DNA of 64,000 nt from the NCBI GenBank assembly GCA_038997165.1, contig JAWBAK010000002.1, positions 3,083-67,082 on the forward strand, in the 5' to 3' direction. Position 1 is the stretch's first letter; every line of letters begins with the position of its first letter. The DNA is from Candidatus Aenigmatarchaeota archaeon (GTDB taxonomy: Archaea; Aenigmatarchaeota; Aenigmatarchaeia; CG10238-14; SpSt-28). The position numbers and the translations under genes are program-made. The notes under the pieces are model-generated. The model saw nothing but the letters and a program-made list of their open reading frames with translations. It made no database searches and was not told where the DNA came from. This document shows, piece after piece, positions 4,915-38,285 of the stretch.

Positions 4915-4916
4915 AT

Positions 4917-7720: not shown

Positions 7721-7722
7721 AA

Positions 7723-8001: not shown

Positions 8002-8045
8002 AAAATATTTATTTCAAATTTTATATTCATAATTATAGTTAGAAA

Positions 8046-8187: not shown

Positions 8188-8195
8188 TCAATTTT

Positions 8196-10082: not shown

Positions 10083-10128
10083 AAAAATAAAAAAGATAAG
10101 AGGAGAGCATAGTCATACTATATTACTT

Positions 10129-18000: not shown

Positions 18001-19917
18001 ATTTTATCTATAAATTCTAGTGAAACTGCCACATTCTATATCGAAATTATTGCATTTGGGGAAAATTTAAATGGATATCTATTAGATAAATTTTATTCTG
18101 GTTTTTTAATTAGGCCATTAGAAAAAATAAATAGAAATGGTTGCGATGATATAAGAAGCGAAGACACTTTTTTAAATCCATTTATTAGGAATCATTGTTT
18201 TATAGATGAAAAGAATCAAAAAGATTTAGCAATAAATAAAAACGAAAAAATTAAATTTTTGGCAATCGCTTATGCAGGTGCTACATTAGATAAAAATATT
18301 TCAGTAAATGTAACTATAAATGTAACAGATGACTCTAATCTTACTATTTTTCAGAATACATCAAGTTTTAAAGATTTAATAAATTTTGAAATATTTAATT
18401 TCACAAAAAAAGGATTATATTTAATTAACTTAACTTTTGAGTTTAATAATATAACTAAAATAGAAACTTATAATTTAAGTGTTTATGAATTAAACTTTTC
18501 TATACAAATACCTAAAAATTACACCAAAGTTAATGATATATTAAGTATTTTTATTTTTGTTAATAGAACAAATGGAATTTCTGAAGAAATAATAAATAAC
18601 ATAACTTCTATATTTCTTTTAACACAAAATGCTAAAATAAAAAATTATAGATATGATAAATCATTACAAAAAATAGAAATTAACATTTCTTTTTCTAATC
18701 CATTTTTTGGAGATATAACTTTAAAAATTGAAGACGAATTAGGAATAGAAAGTAATATAACTATTAGAAATCTTACAGCATATCATTATGAAATTGAAAT
18801 TTCTTATCCAGAAACAGTATTCGTAGATATGGTATTTGCAGTAAAGGCTAGTTCTAAATTATTGCCCTCAAATATAAATATTCAAGCAAATTATACTATA
18901 GAGTATAGTGGAACGTGTTCTTTAGTTTCATCGAAAAATATTTTAAATACTAAAGAGGCATCTTTCATATTTAATGCAACTGATATTGGTGAGTGTAGTA
19001 TTAATATTAATTCAAACGCTACTTATTTAGATCTATTTTTTGAAAGTTATGGTCAAGCAAAAATTTCTATTTTATCTCCTCCTAAAAAAACAGAACCAAT
19101 AGAACTTCCTCAAATTCAACAATTAGCATTACTTATAAGAAAAGCTTCGGATATAATTGAAATAAAGGAAAATTCCTGGAACACAACTGTAATTTTTGTA
19201 AAAAGTATTGGTAGGAATATGAATGTTTCAGCAAAAATATTAAATTATCCAGAACATTTAGTTCAAATAATTCCTCCTAAACAATTAATCGAAGCTGATA
19301 AAGAAGGAATATTTTTGTTTAACATTTCTTTAGATAAAAATGAGACAAGAGAAGAATTTAACATAACTATTTTGTTTAATGGAAGTTTTATTACTAATAA
19401 AACTGATTTAAAGATTAAAGTTTTACGATTAAAGATAGAGGACAAAAAAATAGAATTAGAAAACGAAATTAGAGAATTGGAGAACGAAATTTCTGAATTA
19501 GAAAACAAAATAATAGAATTAAACCAAAGAGAATTATTAGACGAAATTTTAAATATAAAAAATTTGTTAGATTTAGCAAAAGAAGAGTTAAATAAAGGAA
19601 ATATAGCAAAAGTAATGGAAATTATTAACGATATAAAAAATTCAATAAACTATATAAAAAATTCAATAAACTATGTTAAGAATAAGTTAAATGAACAGCA
19701 AACAAAAGTAATGGAAAAACCAAACAATTTTACATTTTTATTAATAATTTTATTAATTATTGCTGGAATTTCTGCAATAATTTTTGTATTATTTATATAT
19801 CCAAAACTTAAATTTAAAAAACCATATTATGATATTAAAAAACAAAAATTTGTTTGGACAAAAGAAGATGAATCTGTTTGGGAAAAGCTGAAAGAAAAAT
19901 GGAGGAAAAAACAATAA
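15067..19917 (+). CDS. giant subtilisin-like (S8) serine peptidase, surface-anchored (1616 aa)
   Basis: Signal peptide, S8 catalytic triad motifs 'ILDTGIDIYHQD', 'HGTHVAGIIAA', 'GTSMSTPFVSGALA'. Then ~1100 aa with dozens of NxS/T sequons, coiled-coil 'ELENEIRELENEISELENKIIEL', and a C-terminal TM helix plus basic tail. Confidence 0.8.
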   Translation: MINKRISFALIFFLTFLFIELSFSNSAYLIQKEKLDEILKNNNFIILSKIKCYFDKICALDKPIKGFESYFFEDKKIFKIHRLESLSIIDAYRVWNTSFENLNLTGNSVKIAILDTGIDIYHQDLNYSLDSWKCFYSINENVIENDWSYCNDDNGHGTHVAGIIAARYLGNISKCFEGYPCGIAPNATLFIAKVFDSNGYAYLIDILNALEWAVNNSVDIVSMSFGIDLSSFGLNSCYPLGNSSLEKAIYLFNSLLDEISIKYNIIFVASIGNNPNSISSPACAKNVIGVGAINKNKNIAYFSSRGPIDNRIKPDIVAPGVNINSTFPINSYKSLSGTSMSTPFVSGALAILIEALRENNISYSSQELKAILLTSPNEEFRNNIFGSGVLNVTELIRIRNNFLTLNIEKNETLRFKVNKTDNYPFKFTIYRHERFEDLNLVRVRIIKDNNVIFESETFDNVFQYKNNSLSGEFYIDVDIKIINKSNTSNKQLNLFTFTFSHKVLNLTEYLEENLNNSVVSMLNVIIDSPIELKLNLANRTIRIFIRDFSGNPIVADKINITILNISDKIVNTTAYFNKSEINFTLPPNLNENYYKLYVIAEKEKRFGIAYINFTYFSFEFLSPREILKVMNGDILNITLRFNYTNISVSQAYLYLENNTNKNISLNFSKENSIISNITLINLEEAGKYYLFLNISLDENNGEYFILNLPLIEFSPIFDYNISYLKNLFADKEYVFNVSIFHINGTKLQINKTLCIENSTTKIFCNSTIDDSVRILTNVSFEGFYNLTINVLHNSNYLNKSFPIKIEFEPNILIIELEKSTFTIFERLNLSARLINSTKNSECTFCKIFVNMTDSEGRVIFLNKELEEIKNIKIPKDFKKGVYNLTLFSKINPIIINTTQINVETLDISTNVSEMIFPNYHNVTINISISENANVSINITKYNVSGIFQIVLDPSNIIDGCTPEINSEGILWCNQTNNIILSINSSETATFYIEIIAFGENLNGYLLDKFYSGFLIRPLEKINRNGCDDIRSEDTFLNPFIRNHCFIDEKNQKDLAINKNEKIKFLAIAYAGATLDKNISVNVTINVTDDSNLTIFQNTSSFKDLINFEIFNFTKKGLYLINLTFEFNNITKIETYNLSVYELNFSIQIPKNYTKVNDILSIFIFVNRTNGISEEIINNITSIFLLTQNAKIKNYRYDKSLQKIEINISFSNPFFGDITLKIEDELGIESNITIRNLTAYHYEIEISYPETVFVDMVFAVKASSKLLPSNINIQANYTIEYSGTCSLVSSKNILNTKEASFIFNATDIGECSININSNATYLDLFFESYGQAKISILSPPKKTEPIELPQIQQLALLIRKASDIIEIKENSWNTTVIFVKSIGRNMNVSAKILNYPEHLVQIIPPKQLIEADKEGIFLFNISLDKNETREEFNITILFNGSFITNKTDLKIKVLRLKIEDKKIELENEIRELENEISELENKIIELNQRELLDEILNIKNLLDLAKEELNKGNIAKVMEIINDIKNSINYIKNSINYVKNKLNEQQTKVMEKPNNFTFLLIILLIIAGISAIIFVLFIYPKLKFKKPYYDIKKQKFVWTKEDESVWEKLKEKWRKKQ

Positions 19918-25817: not shown

Positions 25818-25835
25818 TAAAATACTTTTAGAATT

Positions 25836-26090
25836 GCTTAAGCGCTTAAGCAGTTCAAGCATGTTGACTAGTTACTTTTAAAAATTTAAAAATTAATATA
25901 TGGTTCGTAAGCCTACGATATTATCTAAATTAATCATGAAATTCTTTAATTTATAATTAAATGTTTTAATTCTTCAAATAGAAATGCTTTAACTGCTTGA
26001 AGCGCTTGAAGCGCTTATAAGCATAAGCAGCAAAAGAAATTTTGAAATATTTCTTCTGCTTAAGCGCTTAAGCAGATCAAGCAGTTAATA
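25836..26090. repeat. cluster of palindromic elements: two perfect 16-bp palindromes GCTTAAGCGCTTAAGC (25836-25851, 26058-26073), each followed by CAG(T/A)TCAAGCA...TTGAC, plus a composite variant (25995-26030)
   Basis: Read directly. Each element is its own reverse complement. A related copy lies in-frame inside the CDS at 25587-25621. Confidence 0.8.
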
Positions 26091-26166
26091 TATTGACAAA
26101 ATTAAATATAATATCACTAAAAAATAAAATATTTTATTTCTAAATGATAATTATATAACTTTTAGA

Positions 26167-26412
26167 AATTCTCACATTTTATATTATACTTTCATTTATA
26201 TTTTATAGTTAGTTTTATATCGAGAACTATCTCACATTTATTTTAATATTTGTAAAAGCTCTTTTTAAACAATTTAGAAGAATTATCTCTCACGTTTATA
26301 ATGAGAAACTAAACAAATTTAAAATTTAGATTTTTAAGTTCTAAATAGTATTAAACAAATTTTATTATTCTATAGTGGCAAACTATCTTTAGTCTTCTCT
26401 CACATTTTACAG
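26167..26412. repeat. iteron-like motif (a)T(T/A)TCTCACATTT(T)A x4 in direct orientation (starts ~26173, 26232, 26291, 26399), first three with exact 59-bp spacing, plus one inverted copy at 26808-26826
   Basis: Motif occurrences read directly. Only the ~10-12 bp core is conserved; flanks are not. Confidence 0.6.
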
Positions 26413-27253
26413 AAAAATAACTAGTAACTATTTTTAAATAACTATTATTAAACAAATTACTTATTCATAGATAGTACTAGAAAAGTCAATTTTTTATCAT
26501 TATTTATGAATTTAAAACATAAAGTAAAAAATTATATACTCAATTATATATAATTTTTTGTATAAATTATTAAAAGGTACTAAATAATTTACTTAAAAAA
26601 TAGTGAAAATATTATAAAAAACAGCATTCCATTATTATTATTCTTCTATAGATTTATTTAAATTATTTTTAATTTTTTTATATGTATAAACTTTTTATAT
26701 TTTAAACTTAACTTTAAATCTCTTTAAATATAGCTTTATCGTAAAAATATACCTTTAAAAATTTATAGCTGGCTCTGTAGACCAGTTATAAATTTTTAGA
26801 ATTTAAAAAAATGTGAGAGTTTTTAATTTATTTATTTACTTAATAGTAATTGTTAATAGATTTAAAGAATAAATAAAAAATATTCTGAAAATTAGTGAAC
26901 AAACTTTTTTCTAATATTTGTTAAAATGTTTATTATCCAGATGGCGCATCTATAAGATTCGAGAATTTTATTTTTTATGTCTTTTGTTTTTTCGAAAATA
27001 ATAAATATCTTAAAAGATAAAAGATTATAACTATACAAAACAAAAATATATGCTTATTTCTAAGAAGGAACTTAATAAAAAATTGAAATTAAAAATTTCA
27101 AAGTACAAAAATCAGAAATTATATTGCAAACTATCCTTTTTATAAGAATTGCGATATAAAAGTAAAAAATATTACTAATACTTAAATGTCATATTGGTAA
27201 GAGTGAAAAATTAAAAAAAGAAATATATGAAAGATATTTGGTACTTCTTTCTA

Positions 27254-28069
27254 CTAGTATCTATAGTTTTGATAAATCTGTTTAACTCTATTTTCTAGTT
27301 CATGCACCAAATCTTTTACTGTTCTAGAAGAGAGTAATACTTTTTCTATCTTTTTAAATTCTTTATTTATATCATATGATTTTTCTATACACTCTAAAAT
27401 ATCTTTTACAATATCAATAGAGGGTATGTTTTTTGCATTTAAGTTTTCTGATATTTTTATTGTACCTAACCAAGCATATATTTCACTTAAATTTCTGAAA
27501 TTCTCTGCTTTCTCTTGAATGCTTCTAAAGTGTAAAATAAAGCTTATAAAATTCAAAATAATAGTAATGATTGTAAAAATTGAATATGTTTCTTTACCAT
27601 TTATTATTTCTTTAAATGTTTGTACAAGGTTGTTTAAACTATTTTCATAATTTTTCAAAGCGTTTTTAATTTCGTTTGATGCTAATGAATTCAAAATATA
27701 CTTTGCGTGCATTAGTTCGTGAGGTAATGTTTCAACATCTTTACCATCGATCTTTACATAATCCTTTATTATAAGAATAATTGATCCTTCTTTATATAAT
27801 AGTGGGATTGTTATACCACCCAATTGTATAGAGTTATAAATTAATTCTGATATTATTAGATTTGCTCTATAAACTTCTGTATTTTTAGTAACGTTCTCAT
27901 CTAGATCAATACCTTTACTAGCAAGTTTATTTACGGCATTTTTTACTTCCTCTTTTGAAACTCTCTCAACCAAACCTATTTTTTCTGCTTTTTCAAATAG
28001 ATCTTCTATTAAATCTTTATTTTCTTTTCTTATATGGTTTGCATGTATTGTAGGTATATTATCATTCAT
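27254..28069 (-). CDS. HExxH-motif membrane-associated protein, hypothetical metallopeptidase
   Basis: 'ETLPHELMHAKYILN' followed by a TM segment 'YSIFTIITIILNFISFILHF'. Confidence 0.3.
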   Translation of the reverse strand: MNDNIPTIHANHIRKENKDLIEDLFEKAEKIGLVERVSKEEVKNAVNKLASKGIDLDENVTKNTEVYRANLIISELIYNSIQLGGITIPLLYKEGSIILIIKDYVKIDGKDVETLPHELMHAKYILNSLASNEIKNALKNYENSLNNLVQTFKEIINGKETYSIFTIITIILNFISFILHFRSIQEKAENFRNLSEIYAWLGTIKISENLNAKNIPSIDIVKDILECIEKSYDINKEFKKIEKVLLSSRTVKDLVHELENRVKQIYQNYRY

Positions 28070-28184
28070 AAGTAATTATATTAGATTTGAAAATATATAT
28101 TTTTTATTGATAACTATGAATGTTAAACATCTAAAATAAATTAAAAATCCCTCTTTATAATTTTTTTAAAATTATATAATATTT

Positions 28185-28310
28185 ATGGAACACGCTTCAA
28201 TTAAAACTGCTATTTTTATTGGTATTGCAATTTTAATAATTTTATTTTTCATAATAATAGGTATTTACTATTTTAAAATTTTATCAACGCAAGTAGCTAT
28301 TACCCCATAA
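28185..28310 (+). CDS. tiny single-pass membrane protein 1 of 7 (41 aa)
   Basis: Hand translation gives MEHASIKTAIFIGIAILIILFFIIIGIYYFKILSTQVAITP. It is the first of seven tightly packed same-strand mini-ORFs. Confidence 0.3.
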   Translation: MEHASIKTAIFIGIAILIILFFIIIGIYYFKILSTQVAITP

Positions 28311-28312
28311 AA

Positions 28313-28489
28313 ATGCCTATAGAAATATCAACAGAATTGCTTTATATATTAATTTTTTTCTTGATAATTGTAGCAGTAATATTAACTTTTATTTTTTCTG
28401 GTTTCGATATCAATAGAATGCAAGAAAGTATTTCAAGTTTTTGGGATAGTGTAGATAGATTTGCTAAGAAAATATTTGGAGAAAAATAA
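28313..28489 (+). CDS. tiny single-pass membrane protein 2 of 7 (58 aa)
   Basis: MPIEISTELLYILIFFLIIVAVILTFIFSGFDINRMQESISSFWDSVDRFAKKIFGEK. Confidence 0.35.
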   Translation: MPIEISTELLYILIFFLIIVAVILTFIFSGFDINRMQESISSFWDSVDRFAKKIFGEK

Positions 28490-28491
28490 TT

Positions 28492-28677
28492 ATGGAAGTA
28501 AATTTTTTGATCCTAATAATTCTAGGTATTATAATTTTTTCAATTATTTTAATTGTAATATTTTCTATGATTTGGCCTTCGAAGTTTTCTACATTTTTAA
28601 AAGAAGCATGTTTATTAACAGTTGGAAAATTTTTTGCACAACCATATATATGTGAAGCTTTTAGAGTAGCAGAATGA
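28492..28677 (+). CDS. tiny single-pass membrane protein 3 of 7 (61 aa), CxnC tail
   Basis: TM helix, then 'EACLLTVGKFFAQPYICEA'. Paralogous to protein 4 ('EFCKITIGNIPFIGEGVCET'). Confidence 0.4.
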   Translation: MEVNFLILIILGIIIFSIILIVIFSMIWPSKFSTFLKEACLLTVGKFFAQPYICEAFRVAE

Positions 28678-28865
28678 TTCCGATAAGAACTCTTATAATA
28701 ATTTTTTTAATAATTATTGCAATTATATTTTTAATTTCGATTATCTTTGCATTTTTTAAGGGTGGAGGAGTAGCTCAAGTTTTTTATGAATTTTGCAAAA
28801 TAACTATTGGCAATATTCCATTTATTGGAGAGGGTGTTTGCGAAACTTTAATAAAAGAGATATAA
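28674..28865 (+). CDS. tiny single-pass membrane protein 4 of 7 (63 aa), CxnC tail
   Basis: Overlaps the previous stop (ATGA). TM helix + 'FFKGGGVAQVFYEFCKITIGNIPFIGEGVCETL'. Confidence 0.4.
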   Translation: MIPIRTLIIIFLIIIAIIFLISIIFAFFKGGGVAQVFYEFCKITIGNIPFIGEGVCETLIKEI

Positions 28866-28876
28866 AAAAATAATTT

Positions 28877-29038
28877 ATGGAGCAAACGATTTGGATAATA
28901 ATTCTTATAGTTATTGCAATTCTTTCGTTTATTGTAATATTGAGCATAATATCTTTAGCAAGAGAAGGTGGAATGAGAAGTTTAGGAGATTTGTTTAATT
29001 TATCTAAATTTTTGGAAATTGTTGGAATAAAGAAATGA
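28877..29038 (+). CDS. tiny single-pass membrane protein 5 of 7 (53 aa)
   Basis: MEQTIWIIILIVIAILSFIVILSIISLAREGGMRSLGDLFNLSKFLEIVGIKK. The GG motif after the TM matches protein 4. Confidence 0.35.
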   Translation: MEQTIWIIILIVIAILSFIVILSIISLAREGGMRSLGDLFNLSKFLEIVGIKK

Positions 29039-29187
29039 TAGAGGATGAATTATGGATAGTTTTAGGAATTATTTTATTAATAATAGTTGGAATTTTAATT
29101 TATCTAGCTATAACTAATCCAAAATTTCAAGAATTGATAAAGAATATGATATGGAATCTCAAAATTCCAAAACCTTGGAAAAAATAA
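29035..29187 (+). CDS. tiny single-pass membrane protein 6 of 7 (50 aa)
   Basis: MIEDELWIVLGIILLIIVGILIYLAITNPKFQELIKNMIWNLKIPKPWKK. Start overlaps the previous stop (ATGA). Confidence 0.35.
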   Translation: MIEDELWIVLGIILLIIVGILIYLAITNPKFQELIKNMIWNLKIPKPWKK

Positions 29188-29188
29188 T

Positions 29189-29314
29189 ATGCAAATACCA
29201 ATTAAAATAGTAATTATTATAATAATTTTAATAATTTTAATTACTTTTGCAATCTTTTTTGCAACTTTTTTAAAATCTTCTATTGCTAATATTTTATCTC
29301 AAATATTTGGTTAA
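29189..29314 (+). CDS. tiny single-pass membrane protein 7 of 7 (41 aa)
   Basis: MQIPIKIVIIIIILIILITFAIFFATFLKSSIANILSQIFG. Confidence 0.3.
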   Translation: MQIPIKIVIIIIILIILITFAIFFATFLKSSIANILSQIFG

Positions 29315-31305
29315 ACTTGAACTATTGTTTCTATCATTGGAGTTAATATTAGTGAACTAAAGAGAACTGTTAATATATATAATATTAGTGATATTATCAA
29401 TGTTTTCGAAAGAAAAGAAAGAAAATTATATCTTTCTAATCCACTTTCTAAACCGACAATTAATAAACTTGAAATTATTATCATTTCAACCAAATAAATA
29501 CCTAATGAAAAAGTTATAGATCCAAAAGAAATTGAACTTACTGTAGATGCAGAAATAAATGGAATACCAGTTAAAGGTAAAGCTTCTGTTGATTCCTGAG
29601 TTGGAAGTTCTCCAATACTAAAGAATACTTTAATAATTAGAGATAATAGAATAATTACTAATGAAATTCCAGTTCCAATTATAATTGGCATTAAGAATGT
29701 TATTATAAATTTTAGATTATTTACGTTATCACTTATTAATTCTTCAATCTTTGCTTGAAGTTTAAAAAGGTTAGATAAATATTCAGAAATTATTATCATA
29801 GTATCTCCAGCAAATCTATATCCTTTTTTATAACTTTCGATTATAATTTCAAAAGAATTTTTTATAATACTTGATGGATATATTTTTATTATTTTTTCTA
29901 TTGATTCTTTTAAATTTCCACTATAGGATAATATTGATAACAATTTTTCAAATAATTTTCCAATTTCAAATTTTTTATATCTTTCAATTCCTTTATTAAT
30001 TGCAATCTCTAAAGGATTTCCAGCTCTTAAATAATAACCTGTTTGATACAATACTGTTGGAAATTCGCTTTCTATTTTTTCAATAATTTTTCTTTTTAAT
30101 AAAATATTTCTTAATGCAAAAATTAAAATTAGTGAGATTGGAACAAACAATAAAAATAATGATGAAATTGCAAGAAAAACTAATGTAAAATTATCTCTTA
30201 ATAATTCCTCACACTCTTCTTTACTTAATGTCAAATCTTTTGGTTTTGTTTTAAATTTTGTATTTGCCCATTCTACACATTTTTCAAAATTATAATTTAG
30301 TGAAATAAAATTTGGAAGAGTTAAAGAGGAAAGAATTAATGATATTAAAATTCCAACAAAAATTAAATTAATTTTAAAGTTAGAAAATTTTATTTCTAAA
30401 GGATTTTCTATAAGAAGAAAGGAAATTGTTAATGGTCTAGAAGTTATTAAAGTTATTATTACTAGAAATAAAATTATTGGTAAAATTACATTGAAAACTA
30501 TTACTAAAGTTGTGAAAGAAAAAATTTGAGGGAAAAAAATAGAAAATAGTGGTAAAATAGTTAAAGAAAGTAAAGGCAAAATTACACCTAATCCTAAAAT
30601 AATTGTTGATGGTAATTTTAAACTTCTCGCATATTTTTCCATTCTTTGAAAATTTTCTTCATGCATTACTCTTATCGCTTCTTTTATTAAATTTTCTGAA
30701 GAATATGGATTTTCACTATATGCTATCAATAATTTTAATGCTTCGCAAAATTCTTTCGCTTCTTTATACCATCTTTCGATTATTTCATTTAAACCTTCTT
30801 TAATTGTAGTTTCTCCAACTAAAAATTTAGCTAAAATTCTTTTAAAATCTTTTCCAATTTCACCACTTAAATTACTCGCAACTAAAACAACAGCTCTTTC
30901 TAAATTTGGAACTTGTTTTAAAGAAATACTCATATATATAATTGCATGCATCATTTCGCTAGAGGCAAAATTTCTAATTAGTTTAGCTTTAAGAAATGGA
31001 TAATAATATATTAAAAATGAAATTAAGGATAATAATATAAAAAAAATAAAAGATATTGAGAATCCTAATGAAAAAGCTAATATTGCAATTCCTATTATTC
31101 CAAAAAGAAAAATTAGAATTGCTGCAGAAAAATTTGAAGCTGGAGGTATTCTTAATCTACAAAATTTATTAACTTCATTATATAACTCTTCTTCTTCTTT
31201 TGGAATTTTAATTTTTATTATTTGAAAACTAAAATTACAAAGTAATTCGTAAAAAGAAAGTTTTTTGGATTTTTTATATTCTTCAATAATTTGGTTTACA
31301 TCCAT
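29311..31305 (-). CDS. TadC/FlaJ-like (T2SS-F family) polytopic membrane platform protein candidate
   Basis: 664 aa. Two ~130-170 aa helical cytoplasmic segments alternate with TM bundles. These are 'NLERAVVLVASNLSGEIGKDF...' and '...TVLYQTGYYLRAGNPLEIAINKG...'. The second carries the GspF/TadC-like 'L..aG.pl..Al' motif. The assignment is by pattern only. Confidence 0.4.
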   Translation of the reverse strand: MDVNQIIEEYKKSKKLSFYELLCNFSFQIIKIKIPKEEEELYNEVNKFCRLRIPPASNFSAAILIFLFGIIGIAILAFSLGFSISFIFFILLSLISFLIYYYPFLKAKLIRNFASSEMMHAIIYMSISLKQVPNLERAVVLVASNLSGEIGKDFKRILAKFLVGETTIKEGLNEIIERWYKEAKEFCEALKLLIAYSENPYSSENLIKEAIRVMHEENFQRMEKYARSLKLPSTIILGLGVILPLLSLTILPLFSIFFPQIFSFTTLVIVFNVILPIILFLVIITLITSRPLTISFLLIENPLEIKFSNFKINLIFVGILISLILSSLTLPNFISLNYNFEKCVEWANTKFKTKPKDLTLSKEECEELLRDNFTLVFLAISSLFLLFVPISLILIFALRNILLKRKIIEKIESEFPTVLYQTGYYLRAGNPLEIAINKGIERYKKFEIGKLFEKLLSILSYSGNLKESIEKIIKIYPSSIIKNSFEIIIESYKKGYRFAGDTMIIISEYLSNLFKLQAKIEELISDNVNNLKFIITFLMPIIIGTGISLVIILLSLIIKVFFSIGELPTQESTEALPLTGIPFISASTVSSISFGSITFSLGIYLVEMIIISSLLIVGLESGLERYNFLSFLSKTLIISLILYILTVLFSSLILTPMIETIVQV

Positions 31306-31340
31306 AATAAATAAATAAGTTTACCATATATGTATATATT

Positions 31341-34046
31341 ATGAAATTATTAGAAGAAGTTGCAATAAGATTTTTAATAGGTATATTTATTGCATCTCTT
31401 ATAGGTTTTTTATTTTGGTGGTTAGTTATTCATAATGAAACAGATAGAATTGTTGAAAGAAATTTTCAAAAATTTTATTCTGCATTAGATGAAGCATGTT
31501 CTAGAAGATCTACAATAAATAATCCTACAAAAGTTTATGTAGAAATTCCTCAAAAAAGATTTCAAAATCCATTCGAAGCAGGAATAAATTGGTTAAAAGA
31601 AAAATTAGGAATTCCAGTTCCATTTACTGCTTTTCAAGATCCATATTATAATTTTCATTGGGAATTTTTTCCGCCAGAACCACCATATACATTTGGACAA
31701 GGTATTCCAGAATCTTTAGCTGCATTTTTTATTCCATGGAGCGAAGATTTACCTTGGAGTTCTAATTTAATATTAACTATGGCTTTTAATGCATATGCTT
31801 TGGGATTAGATATGTTTGAAGCAGTAAAGCAACTTGAAAAAGCAAAATCTAAAGCTTATTTATCTATAAAACACAAAATGTCTAATTTTGGGAAAAAAAT
31901 TCTTAATAATTTCGATGAAATAAAAATAATTGTTAAAGCGGTAAATGAAATGGAAGAATATATTAAAAAAGTTGGAAACTATGTTATTAGAGTAAAAGGT
32001 ACTGCAATAAAAATTGCAGATGTTAGTGGAAAAATTATTCATGAAATTAAATTTATATCTAAAGTAACCACAATGTATGCATTATTTTGTCTAGCAATAG
32101 AAGATAAAACTTTAGGAGAATGTTTTACTGAAGGAGTAATTTTTGGAGTAGGTGCAGATGTAGGTAAATTAATAATGAAAAATGTTGTTTTTCCTCGTAT
32201 AAAGAAAAAATTAGAAATTTATTATTCAATTACTGTTGGAAAAATTAAAAAAGGTTTTTCAGAATTTTTAGAGTATGTTTCTGACGAAGTAAAATCGATA
32301 AAATATAAATTTCTTGGAATGGAAAATATTGTTGCTGAAAATATAGATGAAATAAATAAATTAACCGATGACATTAAAAATCTTGTAGATGATGCCAAAA
32401 AATTATTAAATGAGGGAAAAAATTCTGAAGCTCTTAGCAAAATAAATGAAGCAAAAGGAAAATTAAAGGCAATTTCTTCATTAATTGAAGATACTTCTAA
32501 AAAAGCACCACCAGACTACTTTTCGGCTTTATTCTTTACACAAATTGAAATTGAAAAACTACAAGATGAAATAAATGATATAATAAAGAGATGTCCTGAA
32601 GATTTAATAAAAGATATTTCAAAAGGTTTTGTTGAACTAGATTCTCTAGTTAAATCTACAGAAGAGTTACACGATGATATTCATACAAAATCTACAAAAA
32701 AAGTTTTAGAGAGAAAAGGATTTAATTTTGAGTATGATGAAAAATTAAAAAGAAATGTATATGTATTAACAGAAGAAAGTAATAAAGATTTATTTAATGA
32801 ATTTAAAGAAGCAATAGAAGCTAGAAAAGCGATGGGAGAAACAATTTATAGTTATGGAGATTTTAAATTTCAATATGATGAAAAAGGAAACTTAATAAAA
32901 GTTATTTACGATCCATTTGATCCAGATAGCATTACAAATACTATAAAAGAAGGTATTTTGGGTTATCCAAAAAAATTTTTGGCATATTTAGAAGAAAAGG
33001 CATTTATTCATAATAAATTAGTAGATGGAGATGCTGTTGCTAAAGTATTAGAAGATATGAAAGATGATCTTCAAAGAGATGAAAACTTAAGAAAAAGATT
33101 ATTAGAAGCATTTAAAAAAATAGGACATGAAATTGATGAAGATGAATTAATTTATAGAATTGACGATACTATAAGAAAGTATAAAGCTGGAGAAAATTTA
33201 GTATTAGTTGTAGAAAAAAATAGTGAATTAGGAAAACTCTTTGATAAATTACCAAGCGACATTTCTTCACAAGATCTTTCACATTATATTAGAAAAGCAA
33301 TTTATGATGCTATAAAACAAGGTGATGATACTGAATTAAAAAATTTATATGGGTTGATAAATGGAAAAACTTTAAGAATTAAAGAAGATATGGAAATATT
33401 TTTTAGAAGAGGTGTTATAGGATATGCTGCCTTAAGAGCTATTGATTTATACACACCTTTAGGAGCAAGTTGGTGGGATAAATATATTTCTTACTATGGT
33501 TATGAAGGTCAAAAAATTCCTGTAGGATGTCAAACTCAATGTGATGAAGGAAAAATTTGTTTGCAGTTAGGAGCATGCATTAGACAATTTGATTTACCCG
33601 AAAGCTGTCAAAAAATTGGTATAAAAGATGTAAAAATAAAAAGAAATAGTATTGTTGCAAATGATCCAAGATTTTATTTAGTTAGTCCATGCTATGCTGA
33701 ATTAGAAATTTTTATTGATAATTCTGATGCAATACTATTTATTCTTCCAAAAATAGATAAAAATAGGTTAAATGAACCAAATTATTGTTATGCAACAGAG
33801 AATTTTGTTAATTGGTACATAGGTACTTATATTGCTCAATATACAACTAGATGTGTGGGAGCAATAGGTTGCGCTATACTAACTGGTGGTCTTGGAGCTA
33901 TAGATGCTGTTTTGGCATGTTTATTTGGAGCTGCAGGAGGTGTTTGTGGAGTTGTTGTAGATTTAATAGATTTAGCGTTTTCATTTTTAAAAGAATCTAC
34001 TTTTATTTGGCCAACAGTTTATCAAACTTATCCTTGGTTAGCATGA
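31341..34046 (+). CDS. large (901 aa) membrane-anchored coiled-coil / Cys-rich protein, hypothetical; first gene of six-gene coupled operon
   Basis: N-terminal TM, long helical middle, Cys-rich segment (CQTQCDEGKICLQLGACIRQ...), C-terminal Gly/Cys-rich hydrophobic segment. No P-loop seen. Confidence 0.45.
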   Translation: MKLLEEVAIRFLIGIFIASLIGFLFWWLVIHNETDRIVERNFQKFYSALDEACSRRSTINNPTKVYVEIPQKRFQNPFEAGINWLKEKLGIPVPFTAFQDPYYNFHWEFFPPEPPYTFGQGIPESLAAFFIPWSEDLPWSSNLILTMAFNAYALGLDMFEAVKQLEKAKSKAYLSIKHKMSNFGKKILNNFDEIKIIVKAVNEMEEYIKKVGNYVIRVKGTAIKIADVSGKIIHEIKFISKVTTMYALFCLAIEDKTLGECFTEGVIFGVGADVGKLIMKNVVFPRIKKKLEIYYSITVGKIKKGFSEFLEYVSDEVKSIKYKFLGMENIVAENIDEINKLTDDIKNLVDDAKKLLNEGKNSEALSKINEAKGKLKAISSLIEDTSKKAPPDYFSALFFTQIEIEKLQDEINDIIKRCPEDLIKDISKGFVELDSLVKSTEELHDDIHTKSTKKVLERKGFNFEYDEKLKRNVYVLTEESNKDLFNEFKEAIEARKAMGETIYSYGDFKFQYDEKGNLIKVIYDPFDPDSITNTIKEGILGYPKKFLAYLEEKAFIHNKLVDGDAVAKVLEDMKDDLQRDENLRKRLLEAFKKIGHEIDEDELIYRIDDTIRKYKAGENLVLVVEKNSELGKLFDKLPSDISSQDLSHYIRKAIYDAIKQGDDTELKNLYGLINGKTLRIKEDMEIFFRRGVIGYAALRAIDLYTPLGASWWDKYISYYGYEGQKIPVGCQTQCDEGKICLQLGACIRQFDLPESCQKIGIKDVKIKRNSIVANDPRFYLVSPCYAELEIFIDNSDAILFILPKIDKNRLNEPNYCYATENFVNWYIGTYIAQYTTRCVGAIGCAILTGGLGAIDAVLACLFGAAGGVCGVVVDLIDLAFSFLKESTFIWPTVYQTYPWLA

Positions 34047-34462
34047 TCAAAATAAAAAAATTAAAATTATCTGCATTTATAACTTATTTAGTTTTATTTT
34101 TTTCAATGATTTTTGTTATAATTTTTTTATATTTAGGAATTAACATTCTTTTGATAAATATTTATAAAAACAATTTTTTTATTTCAAAAAGTACTTCTGA
34201 ATTTCTTTCTGCAATTATGAATTCTTTATTTTCTTCTACAAATAATATTACTATAGAAATTACATTTCCAAAAGAAGAAATGGAAATATATTTTTTTGAT
34301 GAGAATATAACTGTAAAGAAAGGAAAAGAATTTTTTTCTTCAAAAATTTTTAAACCAAGTTATATTAATTTTAATGTTTCAAATAATGTTATAAAAACAA
34401 CATCGTTTTATAATACAAAAATTCTAATAATAAAAGTAAACGATGAAATAAAAATAATATGA
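34043..34462 (+). CDS. N-terminally anchored small protein (operon gene 2), hypothetical
   Basis: Start ATG overlaps the upstream TGA (ATGA). 'MIKIKKLKLSAFITYLVLFFSMIFVIIFLYLGI' TM, then a polar domain. Confidence 0.4.
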   Translation: MIKIKKLKLSAFITYLVLFFSMIFVIIFLYLGINILLINIYKNNFFISKSTSEFLSAIMNSLFSSTNNITIEITFPKEEMEIYFFDENITVKKGKEFFSSKIFKPSYINFNVSNNVIKTTSFYNTKILIIKVNDEIKII

Positions 34463-34854
34463 AATTGCAAATTTCATTTATTCCAGAATCAATGTTAGAT
34501 GTTTTAACTTTAATAATTGTAATTTCTATGACATTTGGAATGTATATTTTATATACAGAATATAAATTAATTTTAAAAAGAGATGAAAATTTAGATTTTC
34601 AAAATTATAATTTTGCTCAAGTTTTTATTGGAGATAAATGTATACTTTATAATAATATTAGCAAAGGAATTTTAGATTATAATAAAATAAAAAATAAACA
34701 AAGTTGTTTAAATTTAGAAAAAAATATAAGCATTATTTTAAATTCGGAAAAAATTGTTTATAATAACGATTGCGATTTTTCTAATACAAAAGTTATAATT
34801 CCGATAATAGTTTTTAAAGAAAGTTTTCAAGAAGCAAAATTAATAATATGTTAA
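34459..34854 (+). CDS. N-terminally anchored small protein (operon gene 3), hypothetical
   Basis: Overlapping start/stop. TM 'VLTLIIVISMTFGMYILY'. Confidence 0.4.
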   Translation: MKLQISFIPESMLDVLTLIIVISMTFGMYILYTEYKLILKRDENLDFQNYNFAQVFIGDKCILYNNISKGILDYNKIKNKQSCLNLEKNISIILNSEKIVYNNDCDFSNTKVIIPIIVFKESFQEAKLIIC

Positions 34855-35243
34855 TTCCAAAAATAATTACAACATTTTTAACATTAATTTTTTCAATTAT
34901 AGCTTTTTCTTTTGTTTATTTTTTATTGCAAAATTTACCAAAAGCAAAAGTAGAAATACAATATAAATTAAGAGAGGAAAATCCTTTTTCTTCTCATCTA
35001 TGTCAAGTATTTTTAAGTTCAGATGAAATAAAAGAACTAATTATAAAAACAATTAAAAAAGAAAATATTGAAAATTCTAAAGCATTAATTTTAGATAGGC
35101 TTTCTAATTTAATTGAAGATAGAGGATTTGAAATAGTAATTTCAAACGAAAGTATAAAAAAAGGAGCTTTATCGTATGAAGATATATATTCATGCTACTT
35201 TTTTTATAATAAAAAATTGTATGAAATAATAATAAAAATATGA
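34848..35243 (+). CDS. N-terminally anchored small protein (operon gene 4), hypothetical
   Basis: 7-nt overlap with the previous gene. TM 'ITTFLTLIFSIIAFSFVYFLL'. Confidence 0.4.
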   Translation: MLIPKIITTFLTLIFSIIAFSFVYFLLQNLPKAKVEIQYKLREENPFSSHLCQVFLSSDEIKELIIKTIKKENIENSKALILDRLSNLIEDRGFEIVISNESIKKGALSYEDIYSCYFFYNKKLYEIIIKI

Positions 35244-35608
35244 AAACATTAATTGGAAATTTAATATTATTTTTATTACCTTTAGTACTTTTTATAATTG
35301 CTTTTTATTTAACGGCAGGTATTTTAAGTAGAGAAATAAGTGTTATAGATATTTCTTCTAAAATTTTTAATGTAATAAATGAAGCTGAAATTTATAAACA
35401 ACAAATAAGAAATATTACGTTAGAAAAACTAAAAGAAAATAATAATTTAAAAGAATTTTCATTTAGTGGATATTATACTTTTTTCAAAATTTCAATAATT
35501 GAAAGAGATAATTCTCAAATAAAAATAGAAGTTTTTGGATATCCAAAAGAGGAAATAATTGGTATAAGACTGATTATTCATTATATCGATGAAATAAAAT
35601 TATGGTAA
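35240..35608 (+). CDS. N-terminally anchored small protein (operon gene 5), hypothetical
   Basis: ATGA overlap. TM 'LILFLLPLVLFIIAFYLTAGIL'. Confidence 0.4.
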   Translation: MKTLIGNLILFLLPLVLFIIAFYLTAGILSREISVIDISSKIFNVINEAEIYKQQIRNITLEKLKENNNLKEFSFSGYYTFFKISIIERDNSQIKIEVFGYPKEEIIGIRLIIHYIDEIKLW

Positions 35609-36810
35609 ACGAACTCTTAATATTTTTATTGATTATTTTTATAGTTATATCTGTAATTACTTATTTTATTATCTCTACAATAACTAAAGTAGAAATTAAA
35701 GAATATGTTCCAAGAATTATTTTTTCGAGAGATGCTTTTTTAGATATTAATTTTCTTTTTTCCGATTTTGATGGAAAATCTTCTGAATACAATTATGCAT
35801 TTTACATTCAAAATAATTTTTTAAACACATTAAATTTAAATATTTTTTCAGAATTTTTAATTTTAGATGAAAATGTAAAAATTTCTTTATATAAAGAAGA
35901 GTTTTCTGATTTATTAGCTTCTAATGTTAAAAAGAGATATGATATTTCATTTAAAAATATTTTTGATAATTCAAAGATTAGCGGATTAAATTTTTGTGAA
36001 GAGGAGAGAAAAGCTATTTTAGGCTGTAAATATGAATGTTGTAAAGGAGATAATATAAATGATGGAATTTGTTGGAAAGATTGCAAAATTTATAAATTAG
36101 ATCTTTCTGAGAAAAAAAGAAATCTTTATTGTCAAATTTTTCCAATTATTTATACTTCAATAAACTATTCGGCTATTATAAATGGAACTGTTGAAATTAG
36201 TAAAAATACTTATGAAGATAGAATTAAATGGAATGTAAGAAAATCGCCAATTAATATTTTTGTAAGACCATCTCCAATACCATATAATAATCTTTTACCT
36301 TTAATGCTTACTTTTGAAATAGAGGGGGAAAATGTGTTTCTAAGAAAGTTAAGGCTAGAAATTATAAATTATTCTATTGAAATTGAAACTTTTTTTGAGA
36401 AAAAGATAGAAAGTTTAGAAGCATCACAAATTTGCGAAATAGAAGTAAATAGATTTATTAATGGAAAAGTATATCTTGGAAAAGAAAAGAATTGTACTTT
36501 TGAACCTTTAAACATTACAGTTAAAAGAATTTTAAAAGATAGAGTTGAAGAAAAAATAGCAACCAAAAATGAAGATATAAACAAATTAATAAATTCTGTT
36601 TGTAAAGAATATATTTCTGATGGAAAAATAGACTATGAAAACTGTGCAAAAGAATTAAATAAAAGAGAATATAATATTTGTAGTTTATATAGTGATTTAG
36701 AAATTTGTAAAATTGGAGAAGAAAAGTTAAATAAAATAATTATTCTTATTTCAGCTGAAATTGAAAAGAGAGAAGAATATAGAAAAAAATTAATACCAAC
36801 TTTTTGTTAA
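35602..36810 (+). CDS. N-terminally anchored Cys-rich extracellular protein (operon gene 6, 402 aa), hypothetical
   Basis: TM 'LLIFLLIIFIVISVITYFII'. Cys cluster 'CEEERKAILGCKYECCKGDNINDGICWKDCK' plus later Cys pairs. Confidence 0.4.
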   Translation: MVNELLIFLLIIFIVISVITYFIISTITKVEIKEYVPRIIFSRDAFLDINFLFSDFDGKSSEYNYAFYIQNNFLNTLNLNIFSEFLILDENVKISLYKEEFSDLLASNVKKRYDISFKNIFDNSKISGLNFCEEERKAILGCKYECCKGDNINDGICWKDCKIYKLDLSEKKRNLYCQIFPIIYTSINYSAIINGTVEISKNTYEDRIKWNVRKSPINIFVRPSPIPYNNLLPLMLTFEIEGENVFLRKLRLEIINYSIEIETFFEKKIESLEASQICEIEVNRFINGKVYLGKEKNCTFEPLNITVKRILKDRVEEKIATKNEDINKLINSVCKEYISDGKIDYENCAKELNKREYNICSLYSDLEICKIGEEKLNKIIILISAEIEKREEYRKKLIPTFC

Positions 36811-37170
36811 TTACTTTATTTTACAGCCACAAAGCTTTACTAAACAATCTTTAAAAGATCTTAAACCCAAATAATTACATATATTTTTGTAACTTGCAAA
36901 ATCATCTCCATCTTTTACACCAATATCTTTATTCTTGATTTTTGATGATAAATCATCTTCTGAAATTCCAAGATCATATGGACTACTTACTTCAATTGCT
37001 AAACATTTTGTTTTATCAACTATTTCCGAACAAAATATACTTTTTATATTTTCTCTTTTCATCCAATCTAAAGGGCTACTTCCTATTCCTAGCCAAGATA
37101 AAACAAAAAGTGCTGTTACTATTAAAATTACAATTATTATTATTATTTCTAGTGTTGTTAAAACTTTCAT
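36811..37170 (-). CDS. small N-anchored Cys-containing secreted protein, hypothetical
   Basis: 'MKVLTTLEIIIIIVILIVTALFVLSWLG' TM, then a domain with 5 Cys. Confidence 0.35.
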   Translation of the reverse strand: MKVLTTLEIIIIIVILIVTALFVLSWLGIGSSPLDWMKRENIKSIFCSEIVDKTKCLAIEVSSPYDLGISEDDLSSKIKNKDIGVKDGDDFASYKNICNYLGLRSFKDCLVKLCGCKIK

Positions 37171-37203
37171 AATAATATATTAAGTAGTTTTTAAATATTT
37201 TTT

Positions 37204-37276
37204 TGGGCCCGGCGGGATTTGAACCCGCGACCTACCGGTTAAGAGCCGGCCGCTCTACCTACTGAGCTACGGGCCC
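37204..37276 (-). tRNA. tRNA-Lys (anticodon CTT)
   Basis: Reverse complement folds into gggcccg acceptor, gctc/gagc D-arm, gccgg-ctCTTaa-ccggt anticodon arm, T-arm cgcgggttcaaatcccgc. Confidence 0.85.
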
Positions 37277-37376
37277 ATAAATTATCTTAGTTTTCTTTTT
37301 TCATAGAAAATAATTTTTATTATACAATTATGTTAAATATTAAAATCTATAATATAAAAAATTTTAAATTTTATCT

Positions 37377-38285
37377 ATGAAAGATTTAGAAAGCAAATTG
37401 TATCAAAATTCTCAATATAAAAAATTAGAAGAAAAATTAAGAAAAGAATTAGATGAAAGATATCCTATGTTAAAAGAAAGTGAAATTAAAGAAATTCAAA
37501 CTGTTTTTTCTTTTATACCCCATGCAACAGAAAAATATATTGTATTATCAAAAATTAATATTGCAGATATTATAAATTTTAGCTATGCTACATATCTTAT
37601 AAATTACATTAATAGCTATCCAAATACATTATCATCTTTTTCTGCTCTTATTAACTTAGCTTTTATTCTATCTTTGTATACATTTTTAATTTTTTATAGA
37701 AAAAATTTAAAAATACATGAAATGATTCACTCATATAGATTAAGATATTTTCATTTTTATCAAAAAATTAAAGGTAAAGAAAAAGATAGCTCTTTCATTT
37801 CTAACATTCGAGAGAAATTAAAAGAAAATGTAATTAATTCTGATAACAAAATTCTTTCTTTCTTTTCCAGAGAATTTTTGTTAATATTATCTATTCCATC
37901 TTTTATAAAATATTTTATAAAAAGTTTTGATAAAAAGAAATTTTATTTTTGGGAAGAAAAAATTACTGAGTATGAAAAGGAAAGAATAACTGGTAAAAAA
38001 TCTTTTCTTCTTTCCAATCGAGAAAGAAAATTTTTAGAATTTTTAGAATCTTTAAGAACAGATAGTTATATACCAATTGAAGAAAAACAAATAGATAAAA
38101 TAAAAAATTCAAATTTAGATGAAAATTTAAAGAATTTAATTTTAAATGAAATAGAAGAAATAAAAAGCAATAAAGAATTTAAATTTTTTATTGAAAATAT
38201 TCCTGTTTTTATTCCAAAATACGAATTAATAGATAAACTTTATGAAGAATGGAAAAAATCTTCTAATCTTTATCAAAAAAACTAA
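37377..38285 (+). CDS. hypothetical membrane protein with intramembrane HExxH (HEMIH)
   Basis: 'LAFILSLYTFLIFYRKNLKIHEMIHSY'. Otherwise no recognisable family. Confidence 0.3.
   Translation: MKDLESKLYQNSQYKKLEEKLRKELDERYPMLKESEIKEIQTVFSFIPHATEKYIVLSKINIADIINFSYATYLINYINSYPNTLSSFSALINLAFILSLYTFLIFYRKNLKIHEMIHSYRLRYFHFYQKIKGKEKDSSFISNIREKLKENVINSDNKILSFFSREFLLILSIPSFIKYFIKSFDKKKFYFWEEKITEYEKERITGKKSFLLSNRERKFLEFLESLRTDSYIPIEEKQIDKIKNSNLDENLKNLILNEIEEIKSNKEFKFFIENIPVFIPKYELIDKLYEEWKKSSNLYQKN

Follow-up and report, generated by a model that had tools for sequence, protein, structure and literature searches.

What a 9-kb locus of membrane-anchored proteins does in an archaeon is not obvious from its annotation, and the question is whether it encodes a new kind of surface apparatus or a variant of a known one. 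Surface filaments are leading candidates for attaching DPANN archaea to the hosts on which they live, and most DPANN pilus genes are unannotated. The locus lies in a 64,000-nt stretch of contig JAWBAK010000002.1 (assembly GCA_038997165.1), here called the window, and all coordinates are positions in that window. An initial annotation, made without database searches, read the locus as a candidate undescribed filament or attachment system of a DPANN-like cell. The source organism is indeed a DPANN archaeon, a tiny member of the Aenigmatarchaeota, and the annotated open reading frame (ORF) coordinates all agreed with the ORF listing. We consider it likely that the module from 28185 to 37170 is an Aenigmatarchaeota-specific type IV pilus cassette ("type B") comprising a platform and about 14 proteins that are pilin-like or pilus-associated, that its ATPase is encoded elsewhere, and that it serves to build an adhesive surface filament.

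RESULTS

Organization of the locus

The module (Table 1) begins with a plus-strand tandem array of seven small ORFs (28185 to 29314; 41, 58, 61, 63, 53, 50, and 41 aa), the last of which overlaps with its stop the 3' end of the platform gene. The platform gene diverges, across a putative promoter region, from an operon of six plus-strand genes (31341 to 36810), each start overlapping the previous stop by 4 to 7 nt, and the gene for a 119-aa Cys protein converges on the operon. The maximal ORF of the second operon gene begins at 33851, but the start listed in Table 1 is preferred because it gives a 4-nt overlap and fits the orthologs. An HExxH membrane protein gene beside the module had been counted as part of the system, but it sits in a strain-specific insertion of about 1.2 kb that is absent from a conspecific metagenome-assembled genome (MAG; L088). 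HExxH proteins were also considered as a stand-in prepilin peptidase and rejected, as they are mutually unrelated, belong to no family, and are missing from the conspecific MAG.

Table 1. Features of the module and the adjacent HExxH gene. E values are from phmmer, dN/dS is against the conspecific MAG, and a slash marks the leader cleavage site.
Feature	Coordinates	Strand	Evidence
HExxH membrane protein (HELMH)	27254..28069	-	
t1, 41-aa single-pass membrane protein, species-specific	28185..28310	+	Kept in L088; dN/dS 0.07
t2, 58-aa tiny pilin homolog without canonical leader (MPIEISTELLY)	28313..28489	+	L001 47 aa, 2e-11; L033 58-aa prepilin MKG/VTELNW, 5e-5
t3, 61-aa tiny pilin homolog, two Cys, leader lost (MEVNFL)	28492..28677	+	L001, 8e-17; L004 MKIA/LEINV, 2e-9; L011 MKG/VIELNW, 3e-8; L033, 4e-6; dN/dS 0.21
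t4, 63-aa tiny pilin homolog, two Cys, leaderless	28674..28865	+	L004, 4e-6; L001, 3e-4; L033 71-aa MKG prepilin, 1e-4; dN/dS 0.17
t5, 53-aa small membrane protein (MEQTIW)	28877..29038	+	L001, 8e-23; L004, 1e-8; L011 MELPMN, 3e-6; L013, 1e-4; dN/dS 0.03
t6, 50-aa small membrane protein (MIEDELW...IKIPKPWKK)	29035..29187	+	L001, 2e-14; L004, 1e-8; by inspection, L091 46 aa (...IKIPKPWK) and L095 44 aa (MDDDEFW); dN/dS 0.10
t7, 41-aa small membrane protein, kin to t5-type family	29189..29314	+	L011 63 aa, 2e-5; L033 54 aa, 4e-5
PilC/TadC/FlaJ/T2SS-F superfamily platform protein, 664 aa	29311..31305	-	About 10 hydrophobic segments, two cytoplasmic helical domains
Divergent intergenic region, platform gene/operon	31306..31340	.	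35 bp; coordinates from ORF listing
901-aa giant pilin-like protein	31341..34046	+	L033 769 aa, 8e-86; L011 and L013 with leader MKG/LTISAQMLKF; AF2 model; dN/dS 0.20
orf2, 139-aa pilin-like protein (...KLKLS AFITYLVLFF)	34043..34462	+	L001 MVLKA/SAFITY, 6e-28; L004, 2e-11; L033 MLKG/SVITTH, 4e-5; dN/dS 0.12
131a, pilin-like protein (MKL QISFIPE)	34459..34854	+	L001, 2e-27; L004, 4e-18; L033 MSKG/QSQVTPE, 4e-7; L011, 7e-7; dN/dS 0.05
131b, small N-anchored protein, leaderless in most loci	34848..35243	+	L001, 2e-19; L004, 2e-5; positional counterpart L033 156 aa MRKG/MLVASL; dN/dS 0.11
122-aa pilin-like protein (MKT LIGNLIL; orthologs MKG or MKA)	35240..35608	+	L001 MKG/IVANL, 6e-30; L004 MKA/ILHF, 1e-5; L011 MKG/YVKYL, 4e-6; dN/dS 0.14
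402-aa Cys-rich (14 Cys) N-anchored protein	35602..36810	+	L001 387 aa, 4e-77; dN/dS 0.22
119-aa Cys-containing type IV pilin	36811..37170	-	Window MKV LTTLE, conspecific MKA/LTTLE; dN/dS 0.13

The 664-aa protein is a platform

The likeness of the 664-aa protein to T2SS-F/TadC/FlaJ platforms, proposed from its helical domains and one sequence segment, was supported, and we conclude that it is a TadC/FlaJ/PilC-type platform. A profile search returned Pfam T2SSF (PF00482) over residues 123 to 249 (E = 5e-5; 23.7 bits, below the gathering cutoff of 25.2) and no unrelated transporter family. T2SSF was the sole recurrent family among the platform homologs (9 of 15 members), and the second half of the protein matched it in three of seven (E = 0.004 to 0.06) and in the L033 ortholog (E = 0.0027). 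Moreover, the modeled cytoplasmic domain is a helical bundle with the PilC/EpsF fold, and the model is a polytopic tandem repeat of two helical domains, each followed by transmembrane helices. An in-register alignment of the two halves spans 132 columns but is weak (hhalign P = 0.0036). Foldseek with the full model matched EpsF, the remainder being mostly noise, and sequence searches of the PDB with the protein or its profile found nothing. Some near-identical copies at NCBI are already named "type II secretion system F family protein," and thus the description of the locus as belonging to no recognizable family was too strong. A profile scan of metagenomes recovered only four loci. Homologs of the platform adjoin a T2SSE/FlaI-type ATPase in L003, L005, the P0016 contig, L033, L011, L013, L092, L095, and L096, but not in the window, L001, L004, or L088. 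We note that ATPase adjacency is typical of the platform family rather than strictly defining.

The same gene families lie behind an ATPase in related archaea

Uncharacterized type B loci of other Aenigmatarchaeota (L033, L011, L013, L095, and L096) contain the gene families of the window. Their platforms are 28 to 34% identical to that of the window (2e-115 to L033), and they share the 901-aa homolog, the tiny pilins, four proteins of about 130 to 150 aa, the Cys pilin, and a Cys-rich protein of about 330 to 400 aa. For the last of these, the 366-aa L004 counterpart (MMRG/IILK) is alignable and in the same gene position but gave no phmmer match, and those of L091 (329 aa) and L095 (332 aa), with MKG/MKA leaders, were assigned by position and inspection. 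In the ATPase-linked loci, a T2SSE ATPase with its coiled-coil and membrane partners is followed directly by all the other genes in one orientation, and 7 to 8 of 10 to 13 proteins have class III leaders of the MKG type. The window lacks the ATPase and any canonical leader, and its platform gene is inverted. The platform and pilin families co-occur in related genomes, including in ATPase-linked loci, which speaks against an undescribed apparatus.

The small proteins are prepilin homologs, mostly without leaders

The tiny ORFs t2 to t6 have orthologs in other species, dN/dS is 0.03 to 0.21 for t1 and t3 to t6, and t7 is intact, though uncalled, in the conspecific MAG. We conclude from these comparisons that t1 to t7 are real genes; their conservation in relatives was a point on which the initial annotation had staked its reading. 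The ratio is uninformative for t2, which has only six changes, and a phmmer search of the related loci detected no t1 ortholog outside the species. The t5 family is leaderless in nearly all loci, the exception being an L004 copy with MKCG. The t6 protein has an acidic N-terminus and a basic tail, and on inspection, several small proteins share this pattern; read by the positive-inside rule, it could point to a topology other than that of a pilin.

An N-terminal hydrophobic α-helix of about 20 to 25 residues is present in all 14 proteins, and seven (t2, t3, t4, orf2, 131a, 122, and 901) are homologous by phmmer to MKG-bearing proteins of L033, L011, or L013. The suggestion that the small N-anchored proteins are pilin-like therefore holds, as their homologs are prepilins with class III signals. 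The absence of canonical signals holds as well: the [KR][GAS] cleavage motif occurs in 0 of 14 module proteins of the window strain, with near-misses in the 119-aa (MKV) and 122-aa (MKT) proteins, and the remainder begin at the helix. Because the ORFs are maximal, no leader is hidden, and standard prepilin processing is inapplicable to most of these proteins. Canonical leaders are found on 1 of 14 proteins in the conspecific MAG (MKA), 3 of 12 in L001, and 5 of 11 in L004, compared with 8 of 10 in both L033 and L011 and 7 of 12 in L095. Leaderless members in the ATPase-linked L095, L096, and L091 weaken, however, any simple rule by which leaders would be lost whenever the ATPase is unlinked. 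By sequence, the module proteins showed no similarity to the pilin families of the Sulfolobus, Haloferax, and Methanococcus adhesive pili discussed below.

The 119-aa protein matches a pilin from a canonical locus (L006_16491_89; 7e-5), shares a Cys pattern with L003 and L006 pilins, and belongs to a family with M[KR][AGS] N-termini; only five relatives were found among 1.84e9 representatives. The 901-aa protein comprises an N-terminal hydrophobic helix, a coiled coil, an alpha/beta region, a Cys-rich beta domain, and a hydrophobic C-terminus. Its AF2 model (pLDDT 67) extends the helix at residues 2 to 31 to residue 55 and had no credible structural neighbor by fold search, nor did the protein match a Pfam, NCBIfam, or PHROG family. 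The family numbers 23 proteins, all from Aenigmatarchaeota, and identity within the species is just 84%. The protein is a candidate tip or adhesin subunit, and together with the 402-aa protein it probably forms the exposed or adhesive part.

No ATPase or peptidase is linked to the module

The reported lack of a secretion ATPase and prepilin peptidase holds for all 64 kb: searches turned up neither a T2SSE ATPase nor a remnant of one, and no orphan Walker-A protein or candidate polytopic peptidase, in the window, which covers about 28 kb upstream and 27 kb downstream of the module. Neither was found within 10 kb of the module in L001, L004, or L088; past the window ends, sequence reached at most a 4-kb Logan contig. 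A scan of GTDB contigs with an Aenigmatarchaeota ATPase gave 79 loci, none from known close-clade assemblies, but the scan is insensitive below 65% identity, where detection hangs on a single 8-mer. An apparent pairing of platform and ATPase in one MAG, based on similar NCBI accession offsets, was rejected when the proteins proved to be in different assemblies.

DISCUSSION

How the module might work can be proposed from its relatives. Ancestrally, the whole cassette ran co-directionally behind a T2SSE ATPase of about 745 aa; in the clade of the window, the platform gene has flipped between the tiny-gene array and the operon, and the cassette occupies another genomic neighborhood, one without the ATPase. 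The pilin-like proteins would insert in the membrane by their N-terminal helices, and the platform, powered by a hexameric ATPase encoded elsewhere, would lift them into a surface filament by which the cell attaches to a host or substrate. We infer that the ATPase acts in trans, as would a prepilin peptidase for the few remaining canonical leaders.

Alternatively, the module may be an exapted derivative that lost the ATPase and/or peptidase and forms a static, membrane-anchored surface or contact complex rather than an extruded pilus. The ATPase is unlinked in every close-clade locus seen, the ATPase scan matched no close-clade assembly, at most 1 of 14 proteins in the species has a canonical leader, and strong purifying selection indicates that the genes still do something. 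The scan was insensitive, however, and leaderless members of ATPase-linked loci mean that leaderlessness does not imply motor loss. Moreover, the residues that linked and unlinked platforms have conserved are found in the cytoplasmic domains, the parts that contact the ATPase in studied type IV pilus and type II secretion systems, and the 119-aa pilin keeps its MKA leader in the conspecific MAG. We consider such a derivative unlikely, and give only slightly more credence to a broader proposal for this thermophilic Aenigmatarchaeota clade. In it, the cassette, under purifying selection, would work without prepilin processing and with its platform genetically uncoupled from the ATPase. Translation of the pilin homologs would begin at, or a few residues from, the point where processed relatives start once cleaved (M-EVNFL versus MKGVI-ELNWK). 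The pilins would then be "leaderless," and the system might even be independent of the ATPase. Simple decay is very improbable. Lost ATPase linkage, lost signal motifs, and, in the window strain, replacement of A by V at position -1 of the 119-aa pilin might suggest a nonfunctional remnant, but no ORF is broken in any of five assemblies from three species, and selection contradicts decay (dN/dS 0.03 to 0.22 with many synonymous changes; 84 synonymous versus 10 nonsynonymous changes in the platform). Least probable is an integrated virus or mobile element encoding membrane proteins. A tRNA-Lys abuts the locus, orphan membrane proteins are many, and module similarity is discordant with housekeeping similarity. 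Nonetheless, there is no integrase or tRNA-derived direct repeat, the sole PHROG match is marginal and of unknown function (131a; E = 0.008), FtsZ, primase, and S19e are the same neighbors in L004 and L088, the tRNA is kept in L088, and the homologs are parts of ATPase-linked pilus loci. We rejected integration on the PHROG, neighbor-gene, and direct-repeat evidence.

Thus, the initial annotation was right to see a type IV filament locus but not an undescribed apparatus, as the pilus cassette is a rearranged form of one that is ATPase-linked with canonical leaders in related Aenigmatarchaeota. The locus is fast-evolving, and we regard it as a known adhesion machine in an unusual form rather than as a novel type of apparatus. 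It shows how far a pilus system can drift, unlinked from its ATPase, rearranged, and without signal peptides, and still be assigned. Behind an ATPase that hardly changes, one cassette of platform and pilins is exchanged for another, and the break falls at the stop codon of the ATPase gene. Among orthologous pilin-like proteins, some have a leader and others do not. Should those without one still assemble, processing by prepilin peptidase could no longer be assumed to be obligatory.

A general description exists of DPANN pilus islands whose pilins are undetectable "dark matter"; in it, hypothetical signal-peptide proteins beside FlaI/TadC are interpreted as diverse pilins (Makarova, Wolf & Koonin 2019; PMC6393860). 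The window locus belongs to this category, but the description relies on in-locus FlaI and signal peptides, and the locus looked unrecognizable because both cues are missing. The archaeal adhesive type IV pili (Sulfolobus Aap/Ups, Haloferax PilA-PilB3C3, and Methanococcus Epd) classified by Makarova, Koonin & Albers 2016 (PMC4858521) likewise have a TadC/FlaJ-type platform and several pilins that begin with a hydrophobic helix; they also evolve fast and in a modular way, and their components can act in trans. Their pilins, however, depend on class III leaders that PibD, FlaK, or EppA removes, and their ATPase and TadC form the conserved module with pilins in trans, whereas the window keeps TadC with the pilins, apart from the ATPase, which is the opposite split. 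Bacterial Tad/Flp pili also combine tandem pilins of about 50 aa with a TadB/TadC-type platform, but the window is archaeal and lacks a secretin and other Tad components, the Flp motif (G/xxxxEY) is absent from all of t1 to t7, and a single two-domain platform stands in place of TadB plus TadC.

Identity of the locus

The window has a G+C content of ~24% and an archaeal gene content that includes FtsZ, S19e, primase, Orc1/Cdc6, and aIF2-type genes. The assignment to DPANN stands because the closest matches in the databases are proteins of "Candidatus Aenigmatarchaeota" metagenome-assembled genomes (MAGs). Assemblies GCA_038735415.1 and GCA_038996665.1 belong to the window's species, and MAG isolate names (JZ, DRTY, and QQ) suggest that the hot-spring communities of origin are those of Tengchong. 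All ORF coordinates in the initial annotation proved correct, the divergent genes are separated by 35 bp, neighboring operon genes overlap by 4 to 7 nucleotides, and the best start of the second operon gene, orf2, lies at position 34043.

We identify the 664-aa protein as the platform of a type IV filament system. Pfam T2SSF matched residues 123 to 249 below its cutoff (23.7 bits against 25.2) and was the sole Pfam family to recur among 15 platform homologs, being present in 9. T2SSF matches to the second half of the platform were weak, the ortholog in the ATPase-linked locus L033 scored with its second half, and the two halves are in register (hhalign P = 0.0036). Moreover, some near-identical copies were already named "type II secretion system F family protein" by the NCBI pipeline, and all distant homologs examined were directly downstream of a T2SSE ATPase, the filament assembly motor, of ~750 aa. 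A platform followed the ATPase in nearly all of the 79 Aenigmatarchaeota ATPase loci with sufficient downstream sequence. Thus, the T2SSF match, the NCBI naming, and the position of the homologs bear out the earlier suggestion of a TadC-like platform.

Two cassette types, which we label type A and type B, are found behind the ATPase in Aenigmatarchaeota. Type A was seen in loci L003 and L006, and the rarer type B was seen in L011, L013, L033, L047, L085, L092, L095, and L096. The window genes are collinear with type B, the order of which starts with the ATPase, the platform, and three or four tiny proteins, continues with a Cys pilin of ~90 aa, a 714- to 801-aa protein, and four ~130- to 150-aa proteins, and ends with a Cys pilin of ~115 aa and a Cys-rich protein of ~330 aa. 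One-to-one phmmer links to type B were found for the platform (2e-115), the 901-aa protein (8e-86), and t2, t3, t4, t5, t7, orf2, 131a, and the 122-aa protein (1e-4 to 3e-8), and the 119-aa protein matched a type A pilin with a common Cys pattern. Most such proteins in ATPase-linked loci start with class III prepilin signals (MKG/, MSKG/, or MRKG/, where the slash marks cleavage), as does the large-protein homolog (MKG/LTISAQMLKF). Given the collinearity, the phmmer links, and these signals, the window locus is, by homology, a type IV pilus cassette, and the proposal that its small proteins are pilin-like holds. In proposing a TadC-like platform and a role in filaments or adhesion, the initial annotation was right in kind, but it was wrong to call the locus undescribed, as undetectable pilins adjoining FlaI/TadC are a general situation in DPANN (Makarova, Wolf and Koonin, PMC6393860). 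We conclude that the locus belongs to an uncharacterized type IV pilus family of Aenigmatarchaeota, within which it is unlinked from the ATPase, rearranged, and mostly without leaders.

Coordinates of features in the window and in other Aenigmatarchaeota loci (L numbers)
Feature	Coordinates	Strand	Description
tRNA-intron endonuclease gene	124-1317
Rfam tRNA match	8046-8187		142 nt
Surface protein gene	8196-9521		441 aa
Surface protein gene	15067-19917		1616 aa
ORF-free gap	25818-27253		1.4 kb; GC-rich element at 25835 and 26057
Insertion	26950-28150		~1 kb
HExxH gene	27254-28069		271 aa, HELMH; in insertion 26950-28150
Tiny genes t1 to t7	28185-29314	+
Platform gene	29311-31305	-	664 aa
Operon	31341-36810	+	901-aa, orf2 (139 aa), 131a, 131b, 122-aa, and 402-aa proteins
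Cys pilin gene	36811-37170	-	119 aa
Insertion	37287-38274		~1 kb
Second HExxH ORF	37377-38285		302 aa, HEMIH; in insertion 37287-38274
L010 segment shared with L011	5263-8655
L011 segment shared with L010	6839-10234
L044 ATPase	about 8001-10226
L050 ATPase	about 607-2862
L059 ATPase	about 7983-10226
L083 interrupted ATPase	4218-9554		1778-aa ORF
L004 syntenic gap	15727-16857		gene-free
L001 syntenic gap	16899-17077		gene-free

Erosion of leaders

Canonical [KR]-x0-1-[GAS] leaders were present on 8/10 proteins in L033, 8/10 in L011, 7/12 in L095, and 7/13 in L091, all ATPase-linked. The counts were 5/11 and 3/12 in the close-clade loci L004 and L001, 1/14 in the conspecific L088, and 0/14 in the window, in agreement with the earlier remark that the N-termini lack canonical class III signals. 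Leaderless proteins begin at, or a few residues from, the mature N-terminus of their relatives (M-EVNFL versus MKGVI-ELNWK), and the window proteins have no hidden leader because the ORFs are maximal. In the window strain, codon 3 of the 119-aa pilin gene puts Val at the predicted -1 cleavage site (MKV/LTTLE), where Ala, Gly, or Ser stands in all the rest of the family. The Val is a strain polymorphism, as the conspecific MAG has the canonical MKA/LTTLE, and this one substitution could block prepilin processing. Moreover, leaders are missing from t5- and t6-like families and from the L091, L095, and L096 Cys pilins even where the locus is ATPase-linked. Thus, leaderlessness is a trait of the cassette that is extreme in the window and not a simple consequence of unlinking.

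Source of the ATPase

As first reported for a secretion ATPase, no T2SSE ATPase, ATPase remnant, or orphan Walker-A protein was found within the 64-kb window (best tblastn E value about 0.7), nor was any polytopic protein besides the platform. In the window, in L088 and L089 from the same species, and in L001 and L004, the cassette neighbors FtsZ, primase, S19e, and tRNA-Lys, and no ATPase lies within 10 to 29 kb. In these loci, the platform gene lies in inverted orientation, with the array of tiny genes on one side and the operon on the other. A GTDB genome scan for the ATPase returned no close-clade assemblies, which is weak evidence, as detection below 65% identity rests on one 8-mer. Perhaps the cassette is an exapted derivative that works without an ATPase, and we consider this unlikely. 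Rather, the locus is probably a functional pilus cassette, the platform and pilins of which would be driven in trans by an ATPase encoded elsewhere in the genome. Such an ATPase gene would probably adjoin a TRM5/TP-methylase neighborhood, as in L006, L095, and L096. L010 and L011, from species-representative genomes of the scan, share 97.1% DNA identity over 3.4 kb spanning the entire ATPase (98.8% identical as protein) and its upstream partners. Similarity stops at the ATPase stop codon, the adjacent platforms are 37 to 40% identical, and a type A cassette follows in one and a type B cassette in the other. The junction is a sharp cassette-replacement breakpoint, and thus cassettes were exchanged there, with one ATPase type serving very different platforms. 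Moreover, the ATPases of L044, L050, and L059 have no platform within up to 8 kb downstream, even as L044 and L059 keep the conserved upstream partners (the contig ends within the upstream flank of L050), and their platforms must be encoded elsewhere. Cassette exchange and platform-less loci together make an ATPase in trans plausible. Such modularity is in line with that described by Makarova et al. 2016 (PMC4858521), but there the break separates ATPase/TadC from the pilins, whereas here it falls between ATPase and TadC.

Pilus ATPases interrupted by insertions also occur in Aenigmatarchaeota, among them those of L083 and L077 and proteins P0056, P0059, P0066, and P0088. PF14528 and PF14890, which we take to be LAGLIDADG/intein families, were found in interrupted proteins of ~1250 aa, and the large insertions are likely inteins.

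Selection and possible recombination

Relative to L088, dN/dS was 0.03 for the platform (84 synonymous and 10 nonsynonymous changes) and 0.03 to 0.21 for t1 and t3 to t6; t2 alone was uninformative. In the operon, the values were 0.05 to 0.14 for the small proteins and about 0.2 for the two large ones (901 and 402 aa). The module genes are functional, and that the locus is the decaying remnant of a pilus locus is very improbable. A virus or mobile element seems equally far-fetched, as there was only one marginal PHROG match of unknown function, att repeats were absent, and chromosomal synteny is conserved. Two strain-specific insertions bracket the module exactly, and the conspecific L088 MAG lacks both. 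Each contains an HExxH gene, the products of which are unrelated to each other and matched no family. The HExxH protein once proposed as part of the apparatus is thus excluded, its gene being in a strain-specific insertion.

Housekeeping genes evolve far more slowly than the module. Identity between the window and L004 was 94% for FtsZ, 83% for S19e, and 77% for primase but 43% for the platform and 28% for the 901-aa protein. L001 is more distant than L004 by primase (64%), yet closer by platform (56%). Within the species, dS relative to L088 was 0.23 to 0.53 in the module (28151-37286) and 0.03 to 0.15 in most flanking housekeeping genes. Both the high dS and the discordance seen with L001 and L004 point to recombination at the locus or to allelic diversity that is long-lived.

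The 901-aa protein family has 23 members, in Aenigmatarchaeota only. In the model (pLDDT 67), the N-terminal helix is pilin-like and the C-terminal helices are hydrophobic, with a long coiled coil, an alpha/beta region, and a beta domain rich in Cys in between, and a search for structural neighbors found none. We infer that the protein may be an exposed adhesin or tip, a role that fits its within-species variability (84% identity, second to the 402-aa protein at 81%, the most variable gene).

Other features of the window

In the ORF-free gap, a GC-rich element of 27 nt, TGCTTAAGCGCTTAAGCAG[T/A]TCAAGCA, occurs twice, along with five TCTCAC[AG]TTT boxes, which are all of those in the 64-kb window; an Rfam search of the gap gave no match. 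The syntenic gap of L004 has the same motif classes, that of L001 has a GCTTAAGC class motif, and the motif-bearing gaps always adjoin a conserved HTH gene pair. The window gap may serve as an origin of replication or as a large region of regulation. Other large surface proteins are encoded near the locus, the 1616-aa protein having a subtilase domain and the 441-aa protein, with no Pfam family, having a signal-like N-terminal segment and a hydrophobic C-terminal anchor. Finally, the Rfam tRNA match (56 bits) was not called by ARAGORN and is probably an intron-containing tRNA, and a tRNA-intron endonuclease is also encoded in the window.
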